This document shows positions 1,302 to 34,004 of a DNA stretch of 64,000 bases, piece after piece (the stretch's first letter is position 1; each line of letters opens with the position of its first letter). The notes under the pieces were generated by a model that saw only the letters and a list, made by a program, of their open reading frames with translations, did not search any database and was not told the origin of the DNA. Where the stretch lies: NCBI GenBank assembly GCA_902511405.1, contig CABXEZ010000002.1, positions 22,304 to 86,303 on the forward strand. The letters are read 5' to 3'. This DNA is from an uncultured Alphaproteobacteria bacterium. GTDB taxonomy: Bacteria > Pseudomonadota > Alphaproteobacteria > HIMB59 > GCA-002718135. A program made the translations under genes and the position numbers.

Positions 1302-3737
1302 TTAAGCTCTAATTTTTTCATTCATAGAATCATATGGGCTGTCTTCAATTACAACAACTTTATGTTTTTTATCCAAAATATCCATTTCTAATTCCGTTCC
1401 AACTTTACTAAATTTAGGTTTCACCATAGCAATTGCAAGAGATTTTTTCACCCTAAATCCATAGTTACCTCCTGTCGCACGTCCAATCACCTCACCATCA
1501 CTATAAATAGCATTATTGCCTAAAGCATCAGCATCATTAATATCAAAAACTTCCAAGGTAACCATTTTATTGTCAAACCCTTCTTGTTGCCACTTCACAA
1601 GAGAATCTCTACCAATAAAATTACCTTTATTTAAATGAACAAATCTATCAAGACCTGACTCATAAGCCGCATATTCAATAGACATTTCTGTACCTACCAG
1701 TTTATAACTTTTTTCTATTCTTAAACTATCCATTGCTCTAATTCCAAAAGGCTTTACACCAAACTCTTCTCCAGCTTCCATAAGTCTATCAAATATATGG
1801 TTTTGATATTCAATTGGATGGTGAAGTTCCCAACCCAGTTCACCAACAAAATTCATTCTCATAGCAATAGAAGGAGCTAGGCCAACATCTATTTTTTGTG
1901 CAGATAACCATGGAAAGGCTTTATTCGAAAAATCAGCATTAGAAATTTTATTTAGCAAGTCTCTTGATTTTGGTCCAGCCACAACAAGAACACCTATGCT
2001 GTTTGTAAGATTTTCAAAAGTAATCGATCTATCATTTGGCATCCATTTTTTTATCCAATCATGATCAAGTCTTTGGAAAGCTCCAGCTGAAACTAAATAA
2101 AAAGAGTCATCTGATTCTTTTGCAATTGTGAACTCTGAATGAACGCCTCCTTTACTATTTAATGCATGGCATAAATTAACTCTTCCATTTTTTTGAGGTA
2201 GTTTATTTGCTACTAAATTATCAAGAAAATCTTTTGCACCTGGCCCTGATATTCTGCACTTAGCGAATGCAGTCATATCAAGAATTCCAACATTATTTTG
2301 AACATTTAAGCATTCATTGCCCACATGATTAAACCAGTTAGATCTTCTAAAAGACCAATCATCAATTTGCTCAACACCTGTTGGAGCAAACCAGTTAGCT
2401 CTCTCCCAACCAAACTTTTGACCGAACACGGCCCCAAGATCCTTAAGTCTGTCATAGCATGGGGCTTGTCTTAATGGCCTTCCTGCTTCTCTCTCCTCAT
2501 CAGGGTAATGAGTTGTAAAAACATTTGCATATGCTTCTTCATTTTTTTCAATCAGATATGATTTAGTTGCATAATCGCCAAAACGTCTTGGATCTACACC
2601 GAGCATATCAATAGTAGGCTCACCATCAACTATCCATTCAGCTAGTTGCCAGCCTGCGCCTCCTGCAGCTGTAATTCCAAAACTATGACCTTCATTTATC
2701 CAGAAATTCTTCAAACCCCAAGCTGGTCCCACAATAGGACTTCCATCAGGGGTATAACAAATAGCTCCATTATAAACTTTTTTTACTCCCACTTCTCCAA
2801 ACACTGGCACTCTATGAATTGCAGATTCTATATGTGGTTCAATTCTCTCAATATCTTCTTGAAATAATTCAAACTCCGAGTTTTGACTTGGGCCATCTAC
2901 ATAACATGCTGGAGCTCCTTTTTCATATGGACCTAGGATTAACCCTCCTCTTTCCTCTCTCATATACCATGAACTATCTGAGTCACGGAGAACTCCCATT
3001 TCAGGTAAACCTTGCTCTTTTCTTTTTTGTATTTCATGATGAGGTTCAGTTACTATGTATTGATGCTCAACAGGTATAACTGGAATATCCAAACCAACCA
3101 TTCTTCCAGTTTGTCTTGCAAAATTTCCAGTGCAAGAAATTACATGCTCACATTCAATATTACCTTTATCTGTTTCAACAACCCACATTTCATTATCTAA
3201 TTGATTGATACCAGTTACATTTGTATTTCGATAAATTTCTGCACCTTTGTCTCTAGCACCTTTTGCCAAAGCTTGAGTTAAATCAGCTGGTTGTATGTAC
3301 CCGTCTTCTGGATGTTGAATTGCTCCAATTAATCCATCTGTGTTACATAAAGGCCAAATTTCCTTTACCTCATCTGGAGTTAAGAAGTTAACTTTAACTC
3401 CTATTGTTTTAGCAACAGCTGCATATTGATAATACTCATCCATACGATCTTTAGTTGTGGCTAGTCGAATATTACTAACAACACTAAAGCCAACATTTTG
3501 ACCTGTTTCTTCTTCTAAAGTTTTATAGAAATTAACAGCGTATTTATGAAGTTGGCCAACTGAATAGCTCATATTAAACAAAGGTAAAAGACCTGCTGCA
3601 TGCCATGTAGATCCTGATGTAAGTTCTTTTCTTTCAATTAGAACAACATCACTCCATCCTTTTTTTGCTAGATGATATAGAGCACTAACACCAACAACAC
3701 CTCCGCCTACTACGACTACTTTTGCTTTTGCTTTCAT
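1302..3737 (-). CDS. dimethylglycine/sarcosine dehydrogenase-family flavoprotein (FAD DAO domain fused to GcvT-type folate domain)
   Basis: 811 aa. N-terminal dinucleotide fold VVVVGGGVVGVSALYHLAKKG. Length and C-terminal aminomethyltransferase-like half are typical of DMGDH/SARDH. Sits next to etfBA, the usual electron acceptor. Confidence 0.85.
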   Translation of the reverse strand: MKAKAKVVVVGGGVVGVSALYHLAKKGWSDVVLIERKELTSGSTWHAAGLLPLFNMSYSVGQLHKYAVNFYKTLEEETGQNVGFSVVSNIRLATTKDRMDEYYQYAAVAKTIGVKVNFLTPDEVKEIWPLCNTDGLIGAIQHPEDGYIQPADLTQALAKGARDKGAEIYRNTNVTGINQLDNEMWVVETDKGNIECEHVISCTGNFARQTGRMVGLDIPVIPVEHQYIVTEPHHEIQKRKEQGLPEMGVLRDSDSSWYMREERGGLILGPYEKGAPACYVDGPSQNSEFELFQEDIERIEPHIESAIHRVPVFGEVGVKKVYNGAICYTPDGSPIVGPAWGLKNFWINEGHSFGITAAGGAGWQLAEWIVDGEPTIDMLGVDPRRFGDYATKSYLIEKNEEAYANVFTTHYPDEEREAGRPLRQAPCYDRLKDLGAVFGQKFGWERANWFAPTGVEQIDDWSFRRSNWFNHVGNECLNVQNNVGILDMTAFAKCRISGPGAKDFLDNLVANKLPQKNGRVNLCHALNSKGGVHSEFTIAKESDDSFYLVSAGAFQRLDHDWIKKWMPNDRSITFENLTNSIGVLVVAGPKSRDLLNKISNADFSNKAFPWLSAQKIDVGLAPSIAMRMNFVGELGWELHHPIEYQNHIFDRLMEAGEEFGVKPFGIRAMDSLRIEKSYKLVGTEMSIEYAAYESGLDRFVHLNKGNFIGRDSLVKWQQEGFDNKMVTLEVFDINDADALGNNAIYSDGEVIGRATGGNYGFRVKKSLAIAMVKPKFSKVGTELEMDILDKKHKVVVIEDSPYDSMNEKIRA

Positions 3738-10226: not shown

Positions 10227-11398
10227 ATTAACTTTTCAAAAGTTTCATTTAAAATTTTAATTGCTTCATCGACGTGTTTTTTATTTATAATTAATGGGGG
10301 GGCTAATCTAATGACATTATCTCCAGCCGGGACACTTAATAATTTATTTTTCCTTAACAAATTTGATATCATTACATTATTTTTTTTAGTTTTAATACCT
10401 AGGAGTAAACCCGCTCCTCGTATCTCAACTATTTCTTCATAATAGTGTTCTAATTTTTTTAATTTTTGCCAAAAATATCGAGATACAGTGTCTACATTTT
10501 TTAAAAATTTTTTATCAGAAATAATTGATAAAACTTCTCTCCCAACAGATACAGCTAAAGGATTTCCTCCATAAGTAGAACCATGTCTTCCCTGAACCAT
10601 ACCCTTACTAGCCTCATTTGTTGCTAAACAAGCTCCTAATGGAAATCCAGATCCAATCCCTTTTGCTGTGGCAAGAATATCGGGCTGAATTTTTGCCCAT
10701 TCATAAGAATATAGTTTACCAGATCTTCCAAAACCTGACTGCACCTCATCTAAAAAAAGGAGAATATTATTTTTATCGCAAACTTTTCTAAGATATTGTA
10801 AAAATTTAAGACTAGCAGGCTTAATGCCGCCTTCTCCCTGTATGGGTTCAATTAAAATTGCAGCAGTTTCTTTATTTATATTTTTAATGAGAGCGACCTC
10901 ATCGTTAAATGGTATATTTCTAAATCCTGTTAAAAGCGGCGTAAAACCTTCAGAGTATTTTTTATTTTTTTGGGCAGATAATGCGGCAAAAGTTCTTCCA
11001 TGAAATGCCCCTTTAAAAGTAATGATATTTTTTTTTCTTTTGTTTTTTAGATTCCAATAGCTTTTAACAACTTTTAGACCACATTCTATTGCTTCTGCAC
11101 CAGAGTTTGTAAAAAAAACTTTGTCAGCAAATGTTTTTTTACAAAGTTCTTTAGCGAATAACTCTTGATTATTATTCTTATATAGGTTTGATGTGTGCCA
11201 AAGAATTTCTGATTGTTTTTTTAAAACATTTACTAATTTTGGGTGACAATGACCAAGAGAATTGACAGCAATACCTCCTGCAAAATCTAAATACTTTTTA
11301 CCTGAAGGGGTATATAGATAAGATCCCTTCCCTTTAGAAAATAATAAATCTCTTTCGCCGTAAGTCGGCATTATAAAACTTTTTGATTTTTTACTCAT
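10223..11398 (-). CDS. argD: acetylornithine aminotransferase (class III PLP aminotransferase)
   Basis: 391 aa. ...TNSGAEAIE..., DEVQSGFGRSGKLYSYEW and the PLP-lysine context LATAKGIGSGFPLGA. Operonic with argF. Confidence 0.85.
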   Translation of the reverse strand: MSKKSKSFIMPTYGERDLLFSKGKGSYLYTPSGKKYLDFAGGIAVNSLGHCHPKLVNVLKKQSEILWHTSNLYKNNNQELFAKELCKKTFADKVFFTNSGAEAIECGLKVVKSYWNLKNKRKKNIITFKGAFHGRTFAALSAQKNKKYSEGFTPLLTGFRNIPFNDEVALIKNINKETAAILIEPIQGEGGIKPASLKFLQYLRKVCDKNNILLFLDEVQSGFGRSGKLYSYEWAKIQPDILATAKGIGSGFPLGACLATNEASKGMVQGRHGSTYGGNPLAVSVGREVLSIISDKKFLKNVDTVSRYFWQKLKKLEHYYEEIVEIRGAGLLLGIKTKKNNVMISNLLRKNKLLSVPAGDNVIRLAPPLIINKKHVDEAIKILNETFEKLI

Positions 11399-24450: not shown

Positions 24451-25725
24451 TTATGGACAATCTGACCATTTGTAACGGACTCCATATACAGAGAAGCCAC
24501 TTGTCTCCAAATTTTGTTCTGGTTTATTATCACAATATTGCATAATTTTTTGATAATCTTCAAGGTCTCGTACATCTTTCCAATCATCAAATACACAAGT
24601 TCCATCACTACAATTTATTGCATCATTTACTTCAGCCATAGCTTCTATAATTTCGTTAGATTGCTGCTCTAACTGATAATTATCATATTTCCCTGGTTCC
24701 CAACTATCCCAATCTACATGAGTTGCAAAGTTTGTTGCAAGTGACATATCAAATTTGCCAGAGGAAATCCAATTTGCTAAAGCTGATGCTTCCTCTGTAA
24801 TACTTGAGGCTGCCTCTGCTATTTCTGAAGTGGCTTCTGTAATCTCACTCACAACTTCATTTATACTTTCTGCTACTTGACTTACCTCTTCTGCTACTTG
24901 ACTAACTTCTTCTGCTACTTGACTTACCTCTTCTGCTACTTGACTGACTTCTTCTGTTACTTGTGATATCTCTTCTGTTACTTGACTAACTTCTTCTGTT
25001 ACTTGACTAACTTCTTCTGTTACTTGACTAACTTCAAGGATACTTTCATTAGAGGCGGCAAAATTGATAGAAGAATCAATATTTGTCTTAGGATTATTAT
25101 TTCTAGTAATACTAATATTCTTATCCGCACTAGTCATTAAAGTATCAACTTCAACATTTAATTCTGATGCCATATCTTTTTTAAATTTTTCAAAATCTTT
25201 AATTGCAAAAGCTTGATCAATTGTTTCAAATTTTTCTAATGTAGCTACAATTTCAAAAGAAGTTTGATTAATTCTTGTTATACTCTCTGAAAGTTCAACA
25301 GATTTTTCTAATTTTATCTGTTTTAAATCAGACATAGTTAATGTTAACAACTCTTGCTCTTCTGATGAGAATTGTTCCATATCAAGATCATCCATATTGT
25401 GAGAGATTTCTTTTGGCAAAGAACCTGCAATATTGCCAACCAAACTTTCAAAAATATTTAGCTGATCAAAAATTTCTATTTCTTCAAAATTTATATTCTC
25501 ATTACTCAAAGCGTTCATACTAAGATATAAAGTATTAATTGCTTCATCAAAATTTTTCTCTAAGTCAGAAGTCGCTTTAGGCAAATTATTAATATTTTTC
25601 TTTAACTCTTCATTTATTTCTATGAAGTCTTCTTTGAATTTTGGCAAATCATATTCTTCAGCGTAACAATAAATTGAGAGAAAAAATGCGCTAGTTAAAA
25701 ATATAAAAGATCTAAAAATTATCAT
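24451..25725 (-). CDS. secreted acidic repeat protein with cysteine-rich C-terminus (hypothetical)
   Basis: 424 aa. Signal peptide, eight VSQV[TA]EE heptads, then a C-terminal ...CSDGTCVFDDW...YCDN...WSDCP. Confidence 0.6.
   Translation of the reverse strand: MIIFRSFIFLTSAFFLSIYCYAEEYDLPKFKEDFIEINEELKKNINNLPKATSDLEKNFDEAINTLYLSMNALSNENINFEEIEIFDQLNIFESLVGNIAGSLPKEISHNMDDLDMEQFSSEEQELLTLTMSDLKQIKLEKSVELSESITRINQTSFEIVATLEKFETIDQAFAIKDFEKFKKDMASELNVEVDTLMTSADKNISITRNNNPKTNIDSSINFAASNESILEVSQVTEEVSQVTEEVSQVTEEISQVTEEVSQVAEEVSQVAEEVSQVAEEVSQVAESINEVVSEITEATSEIAEAASSITEEASALANWISSGKFDMSLATNFATHVDWDSWEPGKYDNYQLEQQSNEIIEAMAEVNDAINCSDGTCVFDDWKDVRDLEDYQKIMQYCDNKPEQNLETSGFSVYGVRYKWSDCP
24871..25038 (-). 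repeat. 8 x 21-bp in-frame tandem repeat (encodes VSQV[TA]EE heptads)
   Basis: TGCTACTTGACTTACCTCTTC and its variants occur head to tail eight times at exact 21-nt phase. Confidence 0.95.
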
Positions 25726-26564: not shown

Positions 26565-26641
26565 TGGCGCGCCCGAGAAGAGTCGAACTCCTAACCTCCA
26601 GATCCGTAGTCTGGCGCTCTATCCAATTGAGCTACGGGCGC
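26565..26641 (-). tRNA. tRNA-Arg (anticodon ACG), CCA encoded
   Basis: The reverse complement GCGCCCGTAGCTCAATTGGATAGAGCGCCAGACTACGGATCTGGAGGTTAGGAGTTCGACTCTTCTCGGGCGCGCCA folds by hand into a 77-nt cloverleaf. It has a 7-bp acceptor stem, anticodon loop CUACGGA and a TTCGA T-loop. Confidence 0.93.
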
Positions 26642-26690
26642 TTCTTATTTTTCAACCCTTTATCAAGTTATCTATGAATATACAATATTC

Positions 26691-26712
26691 ATGGTACCAC
26701 CATGGTACCACC
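26691..26712. promoter_or_regulatory. two tandem copies of an 11-bp unit, each containing the 8-bp palindrome TGGTACCA (operator-like)
   Basis: ATGGTACCACC ATGGTACCACC. The palindromes sit at 26692-26699 and 26703-26710 with centres 11 bp apart. The site is 50-70 nt upstream of the tRNA-Arg 5' end, in the divergent intergenic region. Confidence 0.4.
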
Positions 26713-26823
26713 ATTTATTCATTTTAACATATTATAGGTTGTTTTACTCCTAATTAAACTAAACAATGTTTTAACTTAGTGTTATGATGGAAAATTGTAT
26801 TTTGAACTTTTAGTAACCATATA

Positions 26824-27939
26824 ATGAATATAAAATCTTTTAATGTTTTCTTTATTTTAATATTTTTGAACACAAGTTTGTTCTCAAAAGATTTATCTTT
26901 TGAAGAATTTAATGAGCTCAAAAAAGCGCTTAAAAATAATGATGTCACATTAGAACAATTTAATGAAACAATTGATGAGTTTGAAATTTCATCAGAAATT
27001 TTTAAAATTTCAAAAGATCTTTTCTTGAATAATGCAATAGAATTAGACGATTATTTAGTTGTTATTGAAAATTCTTTGGTATCTGGAAGCTCTTCTAATT
27101 CTAATAATAAAGAAAATGAAACTATTAATTTAAATGAAAATAGTAATAATATATTTGATGGTGAATTTTTGTTTCAAACAGAAGTTACAAAACTAAGTAA
27201 GTACATAACAGACATGAAATATGGCCAACTATTTGACAACAAAATAATATTTGAAAACAATAAAATAAAAAAAATAAATATTTCTGAAAATAATGAGGAT
27301 GTACTAAAGTTTAGAAAGCCAAAGTTGACCATTTTAGATAATGGAAAATTTTATATTAAATCCAATATTACTGATCCAAAAGACCCATCAGCACCTCTTA
27401 AATATAGGTTTGATGGTCAAATTGATAAAAATCTAATTAATGGAAAAATTCAAATAATTTATAATGGAAGTGAAATGCCTGGAATGGTCTTACTGGAGTT
27501 AGAGACTAAAGGAAAAGCAGTTTTAAATAATAATTCTGATAACATTATGACTGATTTTACAGACAATAAATTATCTTTAAAATTTAAAATTATTGAGGTG
27601 AACAATAGAGTTCCATCATCTCTTAATGCTAAAGTGAATAATATTGAAAACTTGACATTTGTCATAGAGGAAGATCAGGTTAAGGAAATACTTTTTGAAG
27701 AAAAATCAAATAATCTTTTTACTAAAAAAATAATAAAATCATTTAAAAATATAAAAATAAAATTAACCAATCAAACAACCTTAAAAGGGAAATCTAAATT
27801 AGTTCTTAATGAATTAAGAGGTGAAAATGTTGTCATTTGGTGGGATTTAAATTTATCCCAAAATAATCTATCTGGAAAAGTTGAAATAGAATTAGTCGGA
27901 AAAGGGCCACAGATTAGACTTATCCCAGTTAATGAATAA
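26824..27939 (+). CDS. secreted hypothetical protein (Asn/Lys-rich)
   Basis: 371 aa. Signal peptide MNIKSFNVFFILIFLNTSLFS. No recognisable domain. Confidence 0.55.
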   Translation: MNIKSFNVFFILIFLNTSLFSKDLSFEEFNELKKALKNNDVTLEQFNETIDEFEISSEIFKISKDLFLNNAIELDDYLVVIENSLVSGSSSNSNNKENETINLNENSNNIFDGEFLFQTEVTKLSKYITDMKYGQLFDNKIIFENNKIKKINISENNEDVLKFRKPKLTILDNGKFYIKSNITDPKDPSAPLKYRFDGQIDKNLINGKIQIIYNGSEMPGMVLLELETKGKAVLNNNSDNIMTDFTDNKLSLKFKIIEVNNRVPSSLNAKVNNIENLTFVIEEDQVKEILFEEKSNNLFTKKIIKSFKNIKIKLTNQTTLKGKSKLVLNELRGENVVIWWDLNLSQNNLSGKVEIELVGKGPQIRLIPVNE

Positions 27940-28024
27940 ATAATCATTTTATTTGTTGTTTTTTCTTATTTTTTTTAAGTTTAATGTATTTTATATTAAA
28001 GAACTTAATAATTACTAATTTTTA

Positions 28025-31000
28025 ATGAAACTAATTTTTAAAATATTATCACTAATCATTTCTATTGGAATTCTTTTATCAGGAAATGCAGCTTTTGCTG
28101 CTAAAGAAAACCCCTTACTCTTAGCAATGAAAATTGAATGTAGTGGAAATAATGCTGGTAGGAGTTCATGGAGTGATAATTTTTTTGGTTTTACAACTGA
28201 TCATACTTTTCATGGAAGTAGATGGTGGTATGAATCTGGGGATAGACTAGGGGAAATCGGACAACATACCTTTAATGGGTCAAGAACAAAAAAATCTCTT
28301 CTTATAGAAGGAGAAGGAAGATGGTTAGAAGATAATAGAAAAAAACCATGGAAACTTCAATTCATATCCAAAGGGGATAAGCCCATGTTAAAACATTTAG
28401 AAGATGGTGTTGGCGGATATGAGGGTTCTGGGCAAGATAAAAGAGATTGCACGATAACACTACTTAATAAAGTAAAAGCAAATGAAGCTATTCGGTTAGA
28501 TTCCTACACTAGAGTTATTTCAGGACTAAAAAATCGAATAGATAATTTAAATAAAAGAGAAAAAGATAAAGAAAACAATCAAGCAAATACCAATCAAGAC
28601 AGAGAAATTATATTGTTAAAAAATCGAATAGATAATTTAAAGTATGAATTGAAGAAACAGGATTCAAATACCAACCAAGATGTTGATGTAAGTCAATTAC
28701 AAAAAAATGAAGAAGAAATTCAAAACCTTACCAAGAAATATGAAAAAGAAATTACATTGTTAAAAAATGAAATTACCTCTCTTAAGGATGAAAACAAAAT
28801 TAGTGGTAAAAAAATTAAAGAATTAAATGATGAAGTAATTGCAACTAAAAACAATACTGAGTTTGAACTTAAATATGAAAAAATATTAAAACAAATTGAT
28901 GATGTTAAAATAAAATTAGAAAGTTCTAAGTCAGATAATACAAGTTTAGAAAAACAGTTATCATCTTTAAAAGACTCAGAAATTTCTCTAAATACCTCTT
29001 TAGATAATCAAAGCAAAGAAATTGTATCTCTAGAAAATTTAAATTTAGAATTAAAAAAAGAAATAGAAATATATAAGCAAAAAGAAGAAGAATTAATTCA
29101 AATCATAGAAACAACTGAAAATCAAAAATTACAAGAACAGCAACTTGCTGAGGAGAAAAGACAAGCTGAAGAAAGAAAAATTGAAGAAGAAAGAATAGCA
29201 AATGAAAAAAAATTAAAAGAACAACAAGAAGCAGAAAGATTAGCTCAAGAAGAAATTAATAAAAAATTATCTATACTTACACAGGAAACAGATTTAGAAA
29301 AAGCACAAAACTTTTTAACTAATCTTGAGAGCTTTGTTAAACAATATCCAAATGAATTTGATATCATCACAATATCGGAATATTTCATTGCCACTAGATC
29401 AATACTGGATGGAAATTTGAATTTTACCAATGAGACAAAATTAAAAGAATTTAGAGATTATGTAAGTGAAACGAGTGAACTTTATCTAAAATATAACAAA
29501 GAGATTTTTCAAAAAAATCAGACTGAAAGATTAAATACAATAAATCAAGCCATCTTGGGATTAGAAACAAGTATTAATGAGTTGAAATTAATAATGGTCA
29601 ATAATACGCAATCAGTCAATTTACAAAAATGGACAGATGCAATTAAAATTGCGGAAATTACTTTAAAAGAACTGAATGGTTATGATGAGCTCATAAATGC
29701 TAGCAAAAACATTAATGATCTTATTAAATTAAAGGCAGAAGTAGATGGGGCTATTGTTTTTTTAAATGAAACCAAAGATGAATTAAAAATTTATTTACAA
29801 GAAAATTTAACTACTGATTTAGCGCCATTAATTTTAGATCAAATTAAAATAATAGATGAATCCATTAAAAATGAAGATATTAGAGAAATTACAGATACGA
29901 CTGAAAAATCTAAAGAATTCATTTTAAAAAAAATTATTGAACCAAAAAAACTAAAAAAAGCTGAAGAGATTGAAAATGAAAGAAAAAAACTAGCTGAAGA
30001 ACAAAATAAGGAGTTTGAGGAAATATTTAATAAATACAACGCAAAAAATGATTATCAAAAGCAAATCGTAAAACTACTTTACTTTCTAGAAGTGCCATTT
30101 GAAAATATAGCTTTTTCTAACATGGACAACGTGATTTCAATTTCTGGAATTGGGGATGAGTCTATAAAATTAGATGAATTAAAAATTACTAAAATAAATA
30201 AAAAATACTTAAATGAGTGGTTTCAACTAAATGAAAAATATAAATTATTTTCAGATGTATCAAATTCAAATTTTGAAATACCAGAACTTAAGTATTTAGG
30301 AAAAATTGCTGATGATATTAAATTTAGTGGTTTAAACATTTACGATTTAATGGGTTATGCTGAGCTAAGGATAGAAGAGGTAGGAATAAAAAATCTTGAT
30401 TTTGAAAATTTTGGTAAAATTAAAAATATCTTAAGTACAAGTATAGGTAGAGGAGAAGAACATGAGGTTTTAAGTCTCATTTTAAGTGCTAAATTTGATA
30501 AAATTTATTTTAAAAATTCTACATTATCAGAGCCGGAGCCAGCCTCACTTAAATATTTTGAAATTACTAATTGGAATGAATTCTCATTTAAAAAAATTGA
30601 ATTTAAAGATTACAAGTTACAAGAAGAGTTCAATGAATTTCATTTAGAAAATTTTAAAATAAGTAACTTTGCTTTAGATAATAATTTTACCTACGACCTG
30701 CTTGGTTCTCCAGAATCTCAAGAATTGCTTTTAAATGGAGATTACTCAGAAATATTCAATTCATTTGTATCATTGGATAATCTAGAGATTAAAAACTTTT
30801 CAGCAAAAATAAATAATGAAGATGTATTTATTTTAGATAGTGCAAAAATTAATAATATAAAATTTGATTACTTTGGCGCTAACAACAATATCAAGGTTCC
30901 AACTAGTTTTAATTTTGAGATTAAAGGAGCTGATTTTAATTATAATCAAGTGCGTGAAATAAGTGGAGGATTAGCGCCCTTAGATGGTTTAATTGATGAA

Positions 31001-31531
31001 TTAGGATATGAAAAAATTAAGTTTGATTTCAAAACAGGCTGGAAATGGAACACTGAAGCTAATGATATTCTGTTTAATTTAGATTTAGGTATAACTGATG
31101 CTGCATCATTAGCTATTTCAACTAAATTAATAGATCTAGATACAAATATCCTAACATTGCAAGGAGCGCCATTACTGACATACCTTATGACAGAGCCAAA
31201 ATTAAAAAAGCTTAATATATCTTTAGTAGATAGTTCTTTTAGAGATAAATTCATAAATTATGCAGCAAAAGAACAAGGAATGACAGCTGAGCAACTTAAA
31301 GATTTTGTAATTCAATCAATGGATATTTATTCTAATACATTTGGAATTGATCAGAGTCTGGTAAAACAGTTTATAGACGCTACCTCAAACTTTATTAATG
31401 GAAGTAATAAGATTGTTTTATCTATTAAACCTTCAGAACCTGTCTCTATTAATAGCTTAACACCTGATGTGATGGGTCAAAATTATGAAGGATTAGTTGA
31501 TAAACTAAATGTTCATATTAGTAACTTTTAA
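28025..31531 (+). CDS. large secreted coiled-coil protein (hypothetical)
   Basis: 1168 aa. Signal peptide ...LLSGNAAFA, then a globular Trp/Gly-rich N-domain. Next comes about 270 aa of heptad-like E/K/L/N-rich sequence with a repeated LKNRIDNL unit, then a ~500-aa C-terminal region with repeated ...NF/IKNF... segments. Confidence 0.6.
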   Translation: MKLIFKILSLIISIGILLSGNAAFAAKENPLLLAMKIECSGNNAGRSSWSDNFFGFTTDHTFHGSRWWYESGDRLGEIGQHTFNGSRTKKSLLIEGEGRWLEDNRKKPWKLQFISKGDKPMLKHLEDGVGGYEGSGQDKRDCTITLLNKVKANEAIRLDSYTRVISGLKNRIDNLNKREKDKENNQANTNQDREIILLKNRIDNLKYELKKQDSNTNQDVDVSQLQKNEEEIQNLTKKYEKEITLLKNEITSLKDENKISGKKIKELNDEVIATKNNTEFELKYEKILKQIDDVKIKLESSKSDNTSLEKQLSSLKDSEISLNTSLDNQSKEIVSLENLNLELKKEIEIYKQKEEELIQIIETTENQKLQEQQLAEEKRQAEERKIEEERIANEKKLKEQQEAERLAQEEINKKLSILTQETDLEKAQNFLTNLESFVKQYPNEFDIITISEYFIATRSILDGNLNFTNETKLKEFRDYVSETSELYLKYNKEIFQKNQTERLNTINQAILGLETSINELKLIMVNNTQSVNLQKWTDAIKIAEITLKELNGYDELINASKNINDLIKLKAEVDGAIVFLNETKDELKIYLQENLTTDLAPLILDQIKIIDESIKNEDIREITDTTEKSKEFILKKIIEPKKLKKAEEIENERKKLAEEQNKEFEEIFNKYNAKNDYQKQIVKLLYFLEVPFENIAFSNMDNVISISGIGDESIKLDELKITKINKKYLNEWFQLNEKYKLFSDVSNSNFEIPELKYLGKIADDIKFSGLNIYDLMGYAELRIEEVGIKNLDFENFGKIKNILSTSIGRGEEHEVLSLILSAKFDKIYFKNSTLSEPEPASLKYFEITNWNEFSFKKIEFKDYKLQEEFNEFHLENFKISNFALDNNFTYDLLGSPESQELLLNGDYSEIFNSFVSLDNLEIKNFSAKINNEDVFILDSAKINNIKFDYFGANNNIKVPTSFNFEIKGADFNYNQVREISGGLAPLDGLIDELGYEKIKFDFKTGWKWNTEANDILFNLDLGITDAASLAISTKLIDLDTNILTLQGAPLLTYLMTEPKLKKLNISLVDSSFRDKFINYAAKEQGMTAEQLKDFVIQSMDIYSNTFGIDQSLVKQFIDATSNFINGSNKIVLSIKPSEPVSINSLTPDVMGQNYEGLVDKLNVHISNF

Positions 31532-31689
31532 AAAAATTCTTTAAAAGATATAACTGAATTACAATTAAGTTTGTATAATAACCCTAATCTATTACTCTAT
31601 TCATTCGACCTACGGCAAAATATTTTTAGCTAATACTCGTAATAACTAATAACACGCAGTGGCTATAATGTTATAAGGTATATATTAGA

Positions 31690-32240: not shown

Positions 32241-32293
32241 TGGCTGGGGCGGCAGGATTCGAACCTGCGAATGTCGACTCCAAAAACCGATGC
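32241..32293 (-). repeat. perfect 53-nt direct repeat of the tRNA-Gln 3' end (distal att site / pseudo-tRNA)
   Basis: Identical to 33930-33982. Beyond nt 53 only weak tRNA-like similarity remains (AGTACCAAAATGGCCATGCCCAA versus CTTACCGCTTGGCGACGCCCCAA) and no acceptor stem can form. Confidence 0.93.
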
Positions 32294-32591
32294 AGTACCA
32301 AAATGGCCATGCCCAATGGCGGAATACTTAGGTTTATTTTTCTACAAATTTAAAAAATGAGTGTGTGAGTGTGGCCATAGTGTGACCATTATTTTTTTCA
32401 TTTTATTATCCTAGCACCAACCAAGGAGATTGTTAAGTGTGGCGTATGCATGACCATTGTGGACATGTCCATAGTTCACCATTTTTATAAATTATATATA
32501 TTTTACGAATGTTTTTTTACCCCCCCATGTTTCACTGTGGCATCCTCTCCGTCCTCCTTGCGTGTCACAGTGAATCACTTGTATAGTCATA

Positions 32592-32804
32592 ATGGTTAAT
32601 ATTTTTAAACAGACACGGCTTGACAAAAAAATTCTTATCTCCGAAGTAGTGGAGAAACTTTGCTATCCATCAAACGTTATTGAATCACTTGAAAAGGATA
32701 AAATTGACTTTTTACCAAAACCATACAATTATTATTTTGCTAAATATTATGCGGAATTTCTTAAATTAGATAATATTCCTGATTTATTGAAAAAATACAG
32801 ATAA
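32592..32804 (+). CDS. XRE/RodZ-type helix-turn-helix protein (70 aa)
   Basis: ...IFKQTRLDKKILISEVVEKLCYPSNVIESLEKDKIDFLPKPYNYYFAKYYAEFLKLD... follows the RodZ N-terminal HTH pattern (L...R....S...V.......I..LE......LP.....GF...YA..L.LD). Confidence 0.55.
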   Translation: MVNIFKQTRLDKKILISEVVEKLCYPSNVIESLEKDKIDFLPKPYNYYFAKYYAEFLKLDNIPDLLKKYR

Positions 32805-32837
32805 ATTAATTATAATGAATAAAAATATTATTTAAAA

Positions 32838-33383
32838 ATGAGTGGAAAGTATAGCTTATATTATGATTGGATAATGGAAGTAGGTGAAGAGAGATTAGTT
32901 GAGCAAAAATTTTTAAAAGAAAATTTTTATTCACGAGAAGATTACACGGTGTTTTTGTTCATTCTGCTGCGTTTCTCAAAAAAATTGTCTTCAGAAATAA
33001 GAGATAGCACGGCTAATAAATCTGATAACAAATTTATTAAAAGTACATTTCCCAATCCAAACATTACAGGTGATGAGTTGGATAGATTCATTATGCAATA
33101 TTATGAAAAAGTAAAACATTTGAAACATTATGGCACCACTCGCCGAGCCATTTCTCAGCAAACTAATATTCCACGCACGAGTGTAAAACGCATACTTGAT
33201 CGATTAATGAAAAGAAAATTAGTGACAGCAACAAAAAATGATAATTTAATTGTGCCAACCGCTTTAGCGAGGAAAAAATTTTCAGATTATAGAAAATATT
33301 TATTTGCATCTTTCAAGAGACTCAATAAAATTTTTAATGATTCACATTTAGAATATCTTAATCCAAATGATCCAGGTCTATGA
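32838..33383 (+). CDS. hypothetical protein with winged-helix-like DNA-binding segment (181 aa)
   Basis: ...TTRRAISQQTNIPRTSVKRILDRLMKRKLVTATKNDNLIVPT... looks like a MarR/ArsR-type wHTH. The rest is unassignable. Confidence 0.45.
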   Translation: MSGKYSLYYDWIMEVGEERLVEQKFLKENFYSREDYTVFLFILLRFSKKLSSEIRDSTANKSDNKFIKSTFPNPNITGDELDRFIMQYYEKVKHLKHYGTTRRAISQQTNIPRTSVKRILDRLMKRKLVTATKNDNLIVPTALARKKFSDYRKYLFASFKRLNKIFNDSHLEYLNPNDPGL

Positions 33384-33423
33384 GTTATCAAATAGTTTTT
33401 GAGGTCGTTACCTATAAGGATAT

Positions 33424-33819
33424 ATGCGTTTTTTAAGTAAATTTTTAATTCTTTTTCTTTCACTCCACGTTGCAATTACTGTGGTTGCTTATTTTTATGG
33501 TTTTTCATTTACCTTCCCTTTTATCATGACAGAAGGCACTTATGTGCCTGAACATCGTTTACAAGCTTTACGTTTATCAACTTTTACCACTTTTGTTTAT
33601 TTTAGTTTTCGATATTTACTTTTTGGTTCAGAAAAGTTGCATCCAATACAATTCTTAGGTGTTTCTTTGTTTAACTTAGGTGTTCTAGGTGGTCTATGCC
33701 TTTATGTTAATGATATTAATGATCCTTCAGAATATTTTTTAGTACCTTTTTTTATACTTTCATCAATAATTTTATATAACGCTACTAAACCGCAATATAG
33801 AAAATACTTTCAAAAATAA
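33424..33819 (+). CDS. small integral membrane protein (131 aa, ~4 TM)
   Basis: Four hydrophobic stretches (LILFLSLHVAITVVAYFYGF, FTTFVYFSFRYLLF, FLGVSLFNLGVLGGLCLYV, FLVPFFILSSIILY). No recognisable family. Confidence 0.45.
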   Translation: MRFLSKFLILFLSLHVAITVVAYFYGFSFTFPFIMTEGTYVPEHRLQALRLSTFTTFVYFSFRYLLFGSEKLHPIQFLGVSLFNLGVLGGLCLYVNDINDPSEYFLVPFFILSSIILYNATKPQYRKYFQK

Positions 33820-33929
33820 CCTTCAGATTATCTTACCACCAACAATGTGAAATGTAGATCAAAAAAACACTCACAAGTGTGGCCTATGTGTAGCCAAAAT
33901 CGATAAAAGGAAAATTGTGTTGGAATTTT

Positions 33930-34004
33930 TGGCTGGGGCGGCAGGATTCGAACCTGCGAATGTCGACTCCAAAAACCGATGCCTTACCGCTTGGCGACGC
34001 CCCA
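33930..34004 (-). tRNA. tRNA-Gln (anticodon UUG), CCA encoded
   Basis: The reverse complement TGGGGCGTCGCCAAGCGGTAAGGCATCGGTTTTTGGAGTCGACATTCGCAGGTTCGAATCCTGCCGCCCCAGCCA is very close to E. coli tRNA-Gln. Shared parts are UGGGG..UCGCCAAGCGGUAAGGCA, anticodon loop UUUUGGA and GGUUCGAAUCC. Confidence 0.9.

Follow-up and report, generated by a model that had tools for sequence, protein, structure and literature searches.

A recombinase-less insert with phage-type attachment arms and exchangeable cargo at a tRNA-Gln gene of SAR11-like Alphaproteobacteria

The element described here is an insert of 1,689 bp in the 3′ part of a tRNA-Gln gene of an uncultured alphaproteobacterium (GTDB lineage HIMB59). 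The window, i.e. the whole stretch of DNA that was analysed, comprises 64,000 nucleotides of the contig CABXEZ010000002.1 (assembly GCA_902511405.1, positions 22,304 to 86,303 of the forward strand). Its local G+C content is mostly 0.22–0.40, which together with its synteny with SAG (single-amplified genome) and metagenome contigs suggests an origin from Pelagibacterales. Coordinates given without a contig name refer to the window. ARAGORN called two tRNAs in the window, one of which is an intact tRNA-Gln(UUG) at 33930–34004 on the minus strand (anticodon ttg), and the Rfam tRNA model scored this gene at 59.9 bits. A repeat search revealed a direct repeat at 32241–32299 and 33930–33988, the first 53 nt of which are identical and represent the 3′ end of the tRNA-Gln. 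The left core of the attachment (att) sites, attL, is an exact copy of these 53 nt on the minus strand (32241–32293), and the attR core is the 3′ end of the intact gene itself (33930–33982). A first-pass annotation of the sequence had reported the tRNA and the perfect repeat, and ARAGORN and the repeat search verified both. The repeat is beyond chance. The att-bounded insert extends from 32241 to 33929 and encodes no integrase.

The left tRNA-Gln copy (32244–32316) reached 30.9 bits with the Rfam tRNA model, at a gathering score of 29, and ARAGORN made no tRNA call on it in the window scan. Four of the seven acceptor stem pairs are possible by sequence reading, and the RNAfold structure likewise contained a stem of 4 bp. 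The left copy is a non-functional duplicate of the tRNA-Gln that is degenerate beyond the 53 nt, in agreement with its earlier designation as a pseudo-tRNA. In most contigs of the population to which locus L004 belongs the left copy carries a G to A change, indicating that the left core is free to mutate. The perfection of the repeat is not universal, and it is not by itself evidence of a recent event, as had been argued.

Relatives of the site were retrieved via homologues of the neighbouring SH3-domain protein and by inspection of the contigs carrying them; exact look-ups of the SH3 and fatty-acid hydroxylase (FA-hydroxylase) proteins of the window yielded no record. The tRNA-Gln insert structure recurred in many independent assemblies (L001, L004–L006 and L050–L055), and thus it is no assembly artefact. 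Two loci were empty, namely L016, which originates from SAG AG-457-A08, and L058. They consist of the SH3 gene (81 and 87% nucleotide identity to the window, respectively), a single tRNA-Gln and the FA-hydroxylase gene, and the left core is the sole tRNA-Gln sequence that they lack. The possibility that all relatives might be occupied, with no empty site, therefore did not hold, and the reading of the repeats as attL and attR of an integration into the 3′ part of a tRNA was borne out by these clean empty sites. The repeat search found no terminal inverted repeats at the insert ends, as insertion sequences or miniature inverted-repeat transposable elements would have, and the flanking repeat is 53 nt of tRNA. 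It also found no inverted-repeat end resembling an integron attC site, an integrase is missing, and the boundaries are tRNA-derived with phage-type arms. An assignment to either of these classes was therefore rejected.

The interior of the insert contains three intact and co-oriented open reading frames (ORFs) of 70, 181 and 131 amino acids (aa) on the plus strand, just as initially described. Gene 1 (32592–32804) encodes a 70-aa DNA-binding protein of the XRE/RodZ type with a helix-turn-helix (HTH) domain (HTH_25, PF13413, E=7.7e-9). It was intact in every copy examined, and its dN/dS value versus the window copy was 0–0.47 in five comparisons and 0.89 for L013/L014. Gene 2 (32838–33383) encodes a 181-aa protein of an orphan family. 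Its Pfam matches to TrmB, MarR_2 and HTH_24 at residues 95–135 were all below the cut-off, and there were also weak matches to DnaD_N, RPA_C and a resolvase-type HTH. An AlphaFold2 model had a mean pLDDT of 66.9 and was more confident (blocks above 85) at about residues 101–130; in this model, helices at the N-terminus are followed by a winged helix-turn-helix and a long helix at the C-terminus. A fold search against the PDB returned mostly MarR-family structures, among them all of the best matches (such as ZitR, MarR, CouR and HpaR; E about 0.01, probability 0.9–1.0, TM 0.3–0.45), and the protein most probably is a MarR-like winged-helix regulator. A cryptic recombinase, Rep or excisionase, for which structure prediction had been proposed as a check, was rejected, because the protein has a MarR-like fold, belongs to an orphan family and has no catalytic domain. 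A word-indexed search found 16 clusters of the family at 90% identity, which were 66–98% identical to the query and the top one of which had 700 members. A profile of the family had 20 matches at E<=0.001 among 1.84 billion representatives, mostly fragments. The most distant full-length relative was P0138 (171 aa, E=2e-29, L049 281–796), which adjoins a convergent bacteriorhodopsin-family gene on the 1.8-kb contig L049.

Gene 3 (33424–33819) encodes a small membrane protein of 131 aa without a family match in Pfam, PHROGs, NCBIfam or PADLOC. About four transmembrane segments had been proposed for it; two strong hydrophobic peaks were verified, and three to four hydrophobic segments can be read from the sequence. 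In L014 a 283-aa SBF-family transporter (2217–3068; PF01758, E=3.5e-10) is encoded in place of this protein. The HTH gene and the MarR-like gene seem to form a constant unit, to which an exchangeable membrane gene is joined. Most dN/dS estimates for the cargo genes versus the window copy were 0.2–0.75, and the ORFs were intact in all copies. Values above 2 for the 181-aa gene in L013/L014 were disregarded, because a 3-aa indel makes the codon alignment unreliable.

Upstream of gene 1 lies a control region (32438–32591, plus strand) with three features, namely a sequence resembling the arm repeats described below (copy 2, 32436–32456), a perfect 12-nt palindrome TGGACATGTCCA (32460–32471), and a GC-rich hairpin TGTTTCACTGTGGCA/TGTCACAGTGAATCA (32528–32577). 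The control region was kept in all seven contexts of the cargo. The palindrome is probably an operator, and the cargo as a whole might be an autoregulated unit that controls a membrane function. The conserved hairpin showed no covariation, which does not distinguish between an RNA structure and a DNA operator. A known RNA family was rejected for the non-coding parts, as an Rfam scan of their conserved portions gave matches to tRNA alone. A tiny His/Cys-rich ORF (MHDHCGHVHSSPFL, 32447–32491) overlaps the palindrome; judged by eye, it is kept with small changes in several contexts, which could be a coincidence of the conserved operator. A further hairpin, GGGnnAGTG-GTAAGGCCTAT-CACTnnCCC, was present near the cargo genes in three contexts (L002 at about 3205–3233, L014 at about 1089–1117 and L008 at about 1225–1251), and its stem changes are apparently compensatory.

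No domain of an integrase, an excisionase, a Rep protein or a structural protein was found in the insert with Pfam, PHROGs, NCBIfam or PADLOC, and a hidden Markov model built from 25 phage tyrosine integrases had no match in the whole 64-kb window. The earlier statement that recognizable integrase, excisionase, replication and structural genes are lacking was thus upheld. PHROGs gave only weak HTH matches for the cargo proteins, and PADLOC gave no convincing match to a defence system. The three cargo proteins had no relatives in the phage genomes of INPHARED, and the 181-aa protein had none in 2.9 million IMG/VR contigs. A phage moron or superinfection-exclusion module was rejected in view of the missing phage relatives and the lack of a meaningful PADLOC match. 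A phage satellite of the phage-inducible chromosomal island (PICI) or minimalist island (PICMI) type was rejected as well, because neither an integrase nor an alpA-type regulator nor replication, packaging or hijacking domains are present, and there are no phage relatives.

The cargo is enclosed by two non-coding arms. The left arm has a length of 97 nt (32294–32390) and consists of a degenerate tRNA-Gln-like 5′ part (32294–32316), an AT-rich spacer and arm repeat copy 1 (32368–32388). An inner extension (32391–32437) adjoins it. The right arm (33820–33929) has an inner part (33820–33854, common with L060 from about 33826) and a conserved part of 75 nt (33855–33929), which contains arm repeat copy 3 (33876–33896). 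The repeat search found the 21-nt motif AGTGTGGCCATAGTGTGACCA three times, at 32368, 32436 and 33876, verifying that the GC-rich repeats noted in the non-coding ends are real. The Gln elements have in common about 97 nt that adjoin the left core on its inner side and 75–105 nt that adjoin the right core on its inner side (33826/33855–33929). Core and arms combined are about as long as an attP typically is. The left arm was 94–99% identical around four different cargos, while the SH3 genes of the hosts had only 75–90% nucleotide identity. The right arm was 83–92% identical across hosts in an alignment with L004, L060 and L063, which differ in cargo. The inner extension of the left arm is common to L004 and L017, which differ in cargo, and is missing in L060 and L063.

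The different tRNA versions of the element, which are described below, have arms of their own, and each arm set has its own short repeat on both sides. This repeat is GTGTGGCC..TGTGACCA in the Gln version, TGACACAnTTTGTGnCA, which is also present in a phage attP, in the Asp version, and AAAGCGTCGTA in the Leu version. The repeats seem to belong with the arms and not with the regulators, and they are best read as arm-type sites of a recombinase.

At the inner end of the left arm a 22-nt junction motif (consensus ATCCTAsCrCCAACCAAGGAGA; ATCCTAGCACCAACCAAGGAGA in the window) was observed in the Gln, Asp and Leu elements, at 32408–32429 in the window, 9563–9584 in L003, 3143–3164 in L002 and 821–842 in L017. 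It is also present in the empty-site locus L058 on the minus strand (1552–1573), just 5′ of the start of the SH3 gene. The motif was not found in IMG/VR, and on these grounds its reading as a phage sequence was rejected. The minus strand of 32391–32437 reads as a predicted sigma-70-like promoter, TTAACA-17-TAGGAT, which faces the pseudo-tRNA; in the Leu element the same orientation is predicted to drive the intact tRNA-Leu.

The same 53-nt repeat and arms enclose unrelated cargos at the tRNA-Gln of relatives. In L063 an element of 958 bp contains a single ORF of 226 aa. In L060 an element of 1,291 bp encodes a trypsin-like protease, and the left end of this protease element is also visible in L062 and L065. 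L017 is incomplete, with core and left arm visible, and contains ORFs of 350, 92 and 51 aa, the cargo protein of which had no viral relative. A further contig, known from its gene calls alone, has about 1.7 kb with a sulfotransferase-like gene and a 77-aa gene at the tRNA-Gln site. None of the occupants of the site showed an integrase. L060 and L063 have an identical SH3 protein and a near-identical right arm, yet they differ in left arm and cargo, which indicates that the elements are mosaics.

Conversely, the cargo of the window was found at other loci. The block common to all contexts corresponds roughly to 32426–33823, i.e. the control region and the three ORFs, and is called the cassette here. 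Apart from the tRNA-Gln context (the window, L001, L004–L006 and L050–L055), the cassette occurs at a tRNA-Leu(CAA), where L002 has the intact tRNA at its left end and L007 ends with 52 nt of the tRNA 5′ part (51 of 52 identical). It also occurs in L003, between a tRNA-Val and a tRNA-Asp, where 41 nt from the 5′ part of the tRNA-Asp are perfectly repeated on its two sides. L003 originates from SAG AG-457-A08, and thus in one and the same genome the cassette occupies tRNA-Asp while tRNA-Gln is empty. At least four further loci contain the cassette without a visible tRNA. In L009–L012 it lies between unrelated genes without a tRNA or a repeat. No tRNA was seen in L013/L014, where the SBF-family transporter replaces the third gene and a fragment of the Gln-type left arm is fused to the cassette, nor in L059, where the cassette is located downstream of a DUF2306 gene. 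L008 has yet another right flank. The three-gene cassette therefore also occurs without att arms, e.g. in L009–L012 and L059.

The DNA-binding proteins had been suspected to be part of a mobility kit. They are cargo instead of mobility factors, because the same core and arms enclose cargos without a called DNA-binding gene (the protease of L060, the 226-aa ORF of L063 and the 350/92/51-aa set of L017), and because the three-gene cassette is also found without the arms.

The window was then aligned with L004–L006, a different lineage whose tRNA-Gln site is occupied by this element as well. The host segments were clearly diverged, with identities to the window of 76–78% for the SH3 gene, 83% for the intergenic region to the right of the tRNA, 85% for the FA-hydroxylase gene and 77% for the SBP gene. 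The element itself was much more similar throughout its length. The identities were 98–100% for the left core, 97–99% for the left arm, 96% for the control region, 99.5% for the HTH gene, 97.8% for the 181-aa gene, 96.5% for the membrane protein gene and 94.5% for the right arm. The synonymous divergence of the cargo versus the L004 copy was 0.025–0.07. The element is thus far younger than the split of the hosts, and identities of 94.5–100% within flanks of 76–85% show that it was recently transferred horizontally. A recent event had been claimed from the start, and it is this comparison that supports it.

A phage origin of the arms was directly visible in the tRNA-Asp sibling L003. Just inside its attR lies an ORF of 60 aa (11105–11287) that matches positions 137–171 of the 172 positions of Pfam Phage_integrase (E=5.5e-6). 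A scan of IMG/VR with this integrase fragment yielded the viral contig L018, which was 96% identical over 48 aa. L018 encodes a 336-aa integrase (phrog_1, E=9e-41), a holin and an endolysin. The integrase had a single match among isolated phages, a Roseobacter phage, with 30% identity. The 3′ end of the integrase gene together with the right arm of L003 matched L018 at 229 of 242 positions, and the left arm matched at 147 of 153 positions, about 140 nt of which are identical in a row. In L018 the two arms of L003 are contiguous, in the order integrase 3′ end and right arm, 41-nt tRNA-like core, left arm, and this region is the attP of the phage. The integrase stump and the match of both arms to the int-attP region indicate that the L003 element is a deletion derivative of an L018-type element. 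It is a prophage of this kind in which the whole stretch from the left arm to the final approximately 50 integrase codons was lost or replaced by the cassette. The cores do not match, as L018 6253–6293 resembles the 5′ half of a tRNA-Val(GAC), while L003 9330–9370 is tRNA-Asp sequence, with arms that are near-identical. Cores seem to have been swapped between otherwise identical int/att modules.

For the Gln element a comparable parent was not found in exact-pattern scans of IMG/VR with the arm sequences, BLAST against 31 integrase-bearing viral loci gave no match, and in the comparison with INPHARED the tRNA itself was the only match. Because a phage origin was directly visible for the L003 sibling alone, that of the window element is inferred, and it is supported by the tRNA-like extension of the left arm. 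The first-pass annotation had offered the stump of a larger element as one of two possibilities. This applies to the tRNA-Asp sibling and would extend to the Gln element by analogy.

Taken together, the results are best accounted for by an integrase-less slot, similar to the cis-mobilizable elements (CIMEs) of other bacteria, that would have originated from a phage-type element, would have undergone deletion, and would now be spread mainly by homologous recombination of the host. A rough probability of 0.55 is assigned to this interpretation. An element with a phage-type tyrosine integrase would have recombined its tRNA-like attP with the tRNA-Gln of a host, thereby duplicating the 53-nt core. 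An internal deletion would then have stripped all but attP-sized arms and a small cargo. The remaining portable slot would consist of the core and about 97 nt on the left side and of 75–105 nt and the tRNA on the right side, and cargos of one to three genes would be exchanged in it among SAR11-like lineages. Homologous recombination in core and arms would swap cargos between occupied sites, and now and then an element would be gained or lost by a Campbell-type event at the 53-nt repeat. The alternative route would be a temperate phage that supplies an integrase in trans.

The distribution of mismatches in the right arm bears on the choice between these routes. Between the window and L004 there was one mismatch in the inner 82 nt, but five in the 28 nt adjoining the core (Fisher p=0.004). 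In their divergence these 28 nt stood apart from the remainder of the element (p=0.0005) and were indistinguishable from the intergenic DNA of the hosts (p=1.0). This outer part has lineage-specific variants, one of which is shared by L060 and L063. The transferred tract ends inside the arm, while the crossover of an integrase would lie in the core, and this points to recombination between two occupied sites. For the traceable transfer between the window and L004, homologous recombination is thus cautiously favoured by the sequence comparison.

Several points weigh against this interpretation. The argument of the tract boundary is built on six mismatches, and it would lose its force if the 28 nt adjoining the core merely evolved fast. 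The arms are attP-sized, have a repeat on both sides and, on the left, are kept at 94–99%, so that they look selected for recognition by a recombinase; this is more in keeping with mobilization in trans than with a role as passive anchors of homology. If the recipient site were truly empty, homologous recombination could use only 53–75 nt of homology. In addition, no parent, no integrase stump and no phage with Gln arms was found in the scans described above, and the deletion history is drawn by analogy.

The most serious competitor is an active, non-autonomous hitch-hiker. A tyrosine integrase, with or without an excisionase, would be supplied in trans by a co-resident or infecting temperate phage or island and act on attL and attR; the element would be excised as a 1.69-kb circle and integrate into a new tRNA-Gln, and cargos would be swapped like integron cassettes. 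This is a possible explanation, albeit a clearly less probable one than host recombination. It would readily account for the conserved size of the arms (about 97 nt, the 53-nt core and 75–105 nt), for their maintenance around at least four unrelated cargos, for the presence of a specific repeat on either arm of the Gln, Asp and Leu versions alike, and for a left arm that is 94–99% identical in host DNA of 75–90% identity. Furthermore, the identity step on the left side coincides with the core, and tRNA-targeting pelagiphage integrases that supply partial tRNA ends have been documented (bioRxiv 10.1101/410191). A helper with Gln arms was, however, not recovered in the IMG/VR exact scans, INPHARED matched the tRNA alone, and neither the window nor the fetched host loci contained an integrase besides the L003 stump. 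No circular junction was seen; the fetched contigs of 1.4–2.0 kb with the 181-aa gene (L001 and L059) are linear and end in host flanks or are broken off. A tandem array or accretion was likewise not seen in the fetched loci. The window/L004 tract ending inside the right arm, the L060/L063 mosaic and the movement of the cassette without att arms also speak against it. Mobilization in trans, the other possibility offered in the first-pass annotation, was thus not demonstrated, as no helper was found and the one traceable transfer ends inside the right arm.

A broader version of this idea would be a tRNA-anchored cassette system of SAR11-like bacteria, in which phage-derived docking arms of about 250 bp in total at tRNA-Gln, tRNA-Asp and tRNA-Leu are served in trans by the integrase of a passing temperate phage. 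This proposal is tentative, and the odds are against it. If it were true, cargos of one to three genes would be swapped across species-level lineages without an element-encoded recombinase, and the system would be a functional analogue of integron cassettes.

It is improbable that the insert is an inert stump, i.e. the dead remnant of one ancient integration that was inherited vertically and became patchy by loss via the 53-nt repeat. The L003 sibling, with its integrase stump, clearly arose by deletion, a recombinase is absent, the outer right arm has lineage-specific variants, and a deletion between the 53-nt repeats would restore clean empty sites, all of which would fit such a history. It is contradicted by an element identity of 94.5–100% in flanks of 76–85%, by the low synonymous divergence from the L004 copy (0.025–0.07), by unrelated cargos within the same arms even next to an identical host SH3 protein, and by the presence of the same cassette at three tRNAs and several other loci.

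Least probable is a self-mobilizing element, in which a recombinase, excisionase or replication initiator would be hidden among the three small proteins (the 181-aa protein being the best candidate) and would use the arm repeats as binding sites or iterons: the resemblance of motif copy 2 in the control region to the arm repeats and the weak DnaD_N, RPA_C and resolvase-type HTH matches are outweighed by a MarR-like structure without a catalytic domain, by the same arms and repeats around cargos lacking these proteins (L060 and L063), by cassettes without arms (L009 and L059), and by tRNA-Asp and tRNA-Leu siblings that combine the same proteins with different arm repeats.

The neighbourhood of the insert is variable as well. 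About 5 kb (26642–31640) separate a tRNA-Arg(acg) at 26565–26641 from the SH3 gene, and this stretch contains a 371-aa ORF and a 1168-aa coiled-coil ORF that has a signal-peptide-like N-terminus and no Pfam match. In L004, L016 and L058 the distance between the tRNA-Arg and the SH3 gene is merely 68–141 nt, and thus the stretch represents a second strain-specific insertion beside a tRNA. A direct repeat of the tRNA-Arg was not found around it. On the minus strand at 24451–25725 an ORF of 424 aa was observed that contains a block of tandem (EEVSQVT/A)n repeats and starts with a signal-like sequence; it is another probable surface or secreted protein beside the variable region.

SAR11 bacteria have a very large open pangenome and very few recognizable mobile elements, and it is a question how small accessory genes move between lineages. 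The locus provides a sequence-defined example, namely a recombinase-less cassette of less than 2 kb with phage-type att arms. The tRNA-Gln site is known with at least four other cargos, and a near-identical copy of the present one is found in a host with flanks that differ by 15–24%. The locus connects the integration of temperate phages at tRNA genes with lasting slots for cargo, and it supplies defined attL, attR and attB sequences together with a candidate attP. In the literature searched, no description was found of a family of recombinase-less elements below 2 kb that combines conserved attP-sized arms, interchangeable cargos of one to three genes, the occurrence of the same cargo at three tRNAs and near-identity across hosts that diverged at the species level.

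Several known systems share some of these features. Integron cassettes and pseudo-SCC elements (staphylococcal cassette chromosomes without ccr) are small cargos without a recombinase of their own that are exchanged at a fixed site by a recombinase encoded elsewhere. The present element resembles them as a small cargo unit bounded by recombination sites and devoid of its own recombinase, but it has no attC, attI, IntI or Ccr, and its boundaries are phage-type attL and attR sites in a tRNA. CIMEs, which in Streptococcus are derived from integrative and conjugative or integrative and mobilizable elements (ICE/IME), are more similar. A tRNA 3′-end site is used, and an integrase-bearing element decays, as the L003 sibling shows. 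The Gln element retains attL and attR without integrase-type genes, and an integrase stump survives in L003. Unlike in CIMEs, the parent is phage-like and not conjugative, the size is 0.96–1.7 kb, one set of arms has varying cargos of one to three genes, no accretion with a functional partner element was seen, and the hosts are marine oligotrophs with streamlined genomes. The additive flexible genomic islands of ‘Ca. Methylopumilus’ (fGI-2 at tRNA-Lys; PMC10872708) likewise have strain-variable genes beside a tRNA with recurring tRNA 3′ ends, and they too are found in a streamlined planktonic bacterium (Methylophilaceae; PMC10872708). In contrast to these islands, the present site is a single slot with a 53-nt repeat and conserved att arms of about 100 nt, the arms of a sibling are phage-derived, and hosts that differ at the species level have near-identical elements.

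Tycheposons have in common with the element the tRNA-targeted integration, the delivery of cargo in an abundant marine bacterium and the occurrence of degenerate remnants; in Prochlorococcus, tycheposon remnants contain partial tRNAs and fragmented integrases (bioRxiv 10.1101/2020.12.28.424599). Unlike tycheposons, the insert has no recombinase and no replication/helicase module, and its size is 1–2 kb, compared with the quoted 4–200 kb. Membership was ruled out, because the defining genes are absent. The temperate pelagiphages of the HTVC019P type encode a tyrosine integrase with an attP just downstream of the int gene and a core in a tRNA, for which the phage supplies the partial tRNA end (bioRxiv 10.1101/410191). 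The L018/L003 pair has the same layout, with int reading into attP, whereas the window element has no phage genes, and its 53-nt core at the 3′ end of tRNA-Gln is not among the reported targets (bioRxiv 10.1101/410191). For the hypervariable region of SAR11, phage integration at Pelagibacter tRNAs followed by the deposit of cargo and subsequent decay has been proposed (10.64898/2026.04.03.716430), and the L003/L018 pair is a sequence-level example of this process.

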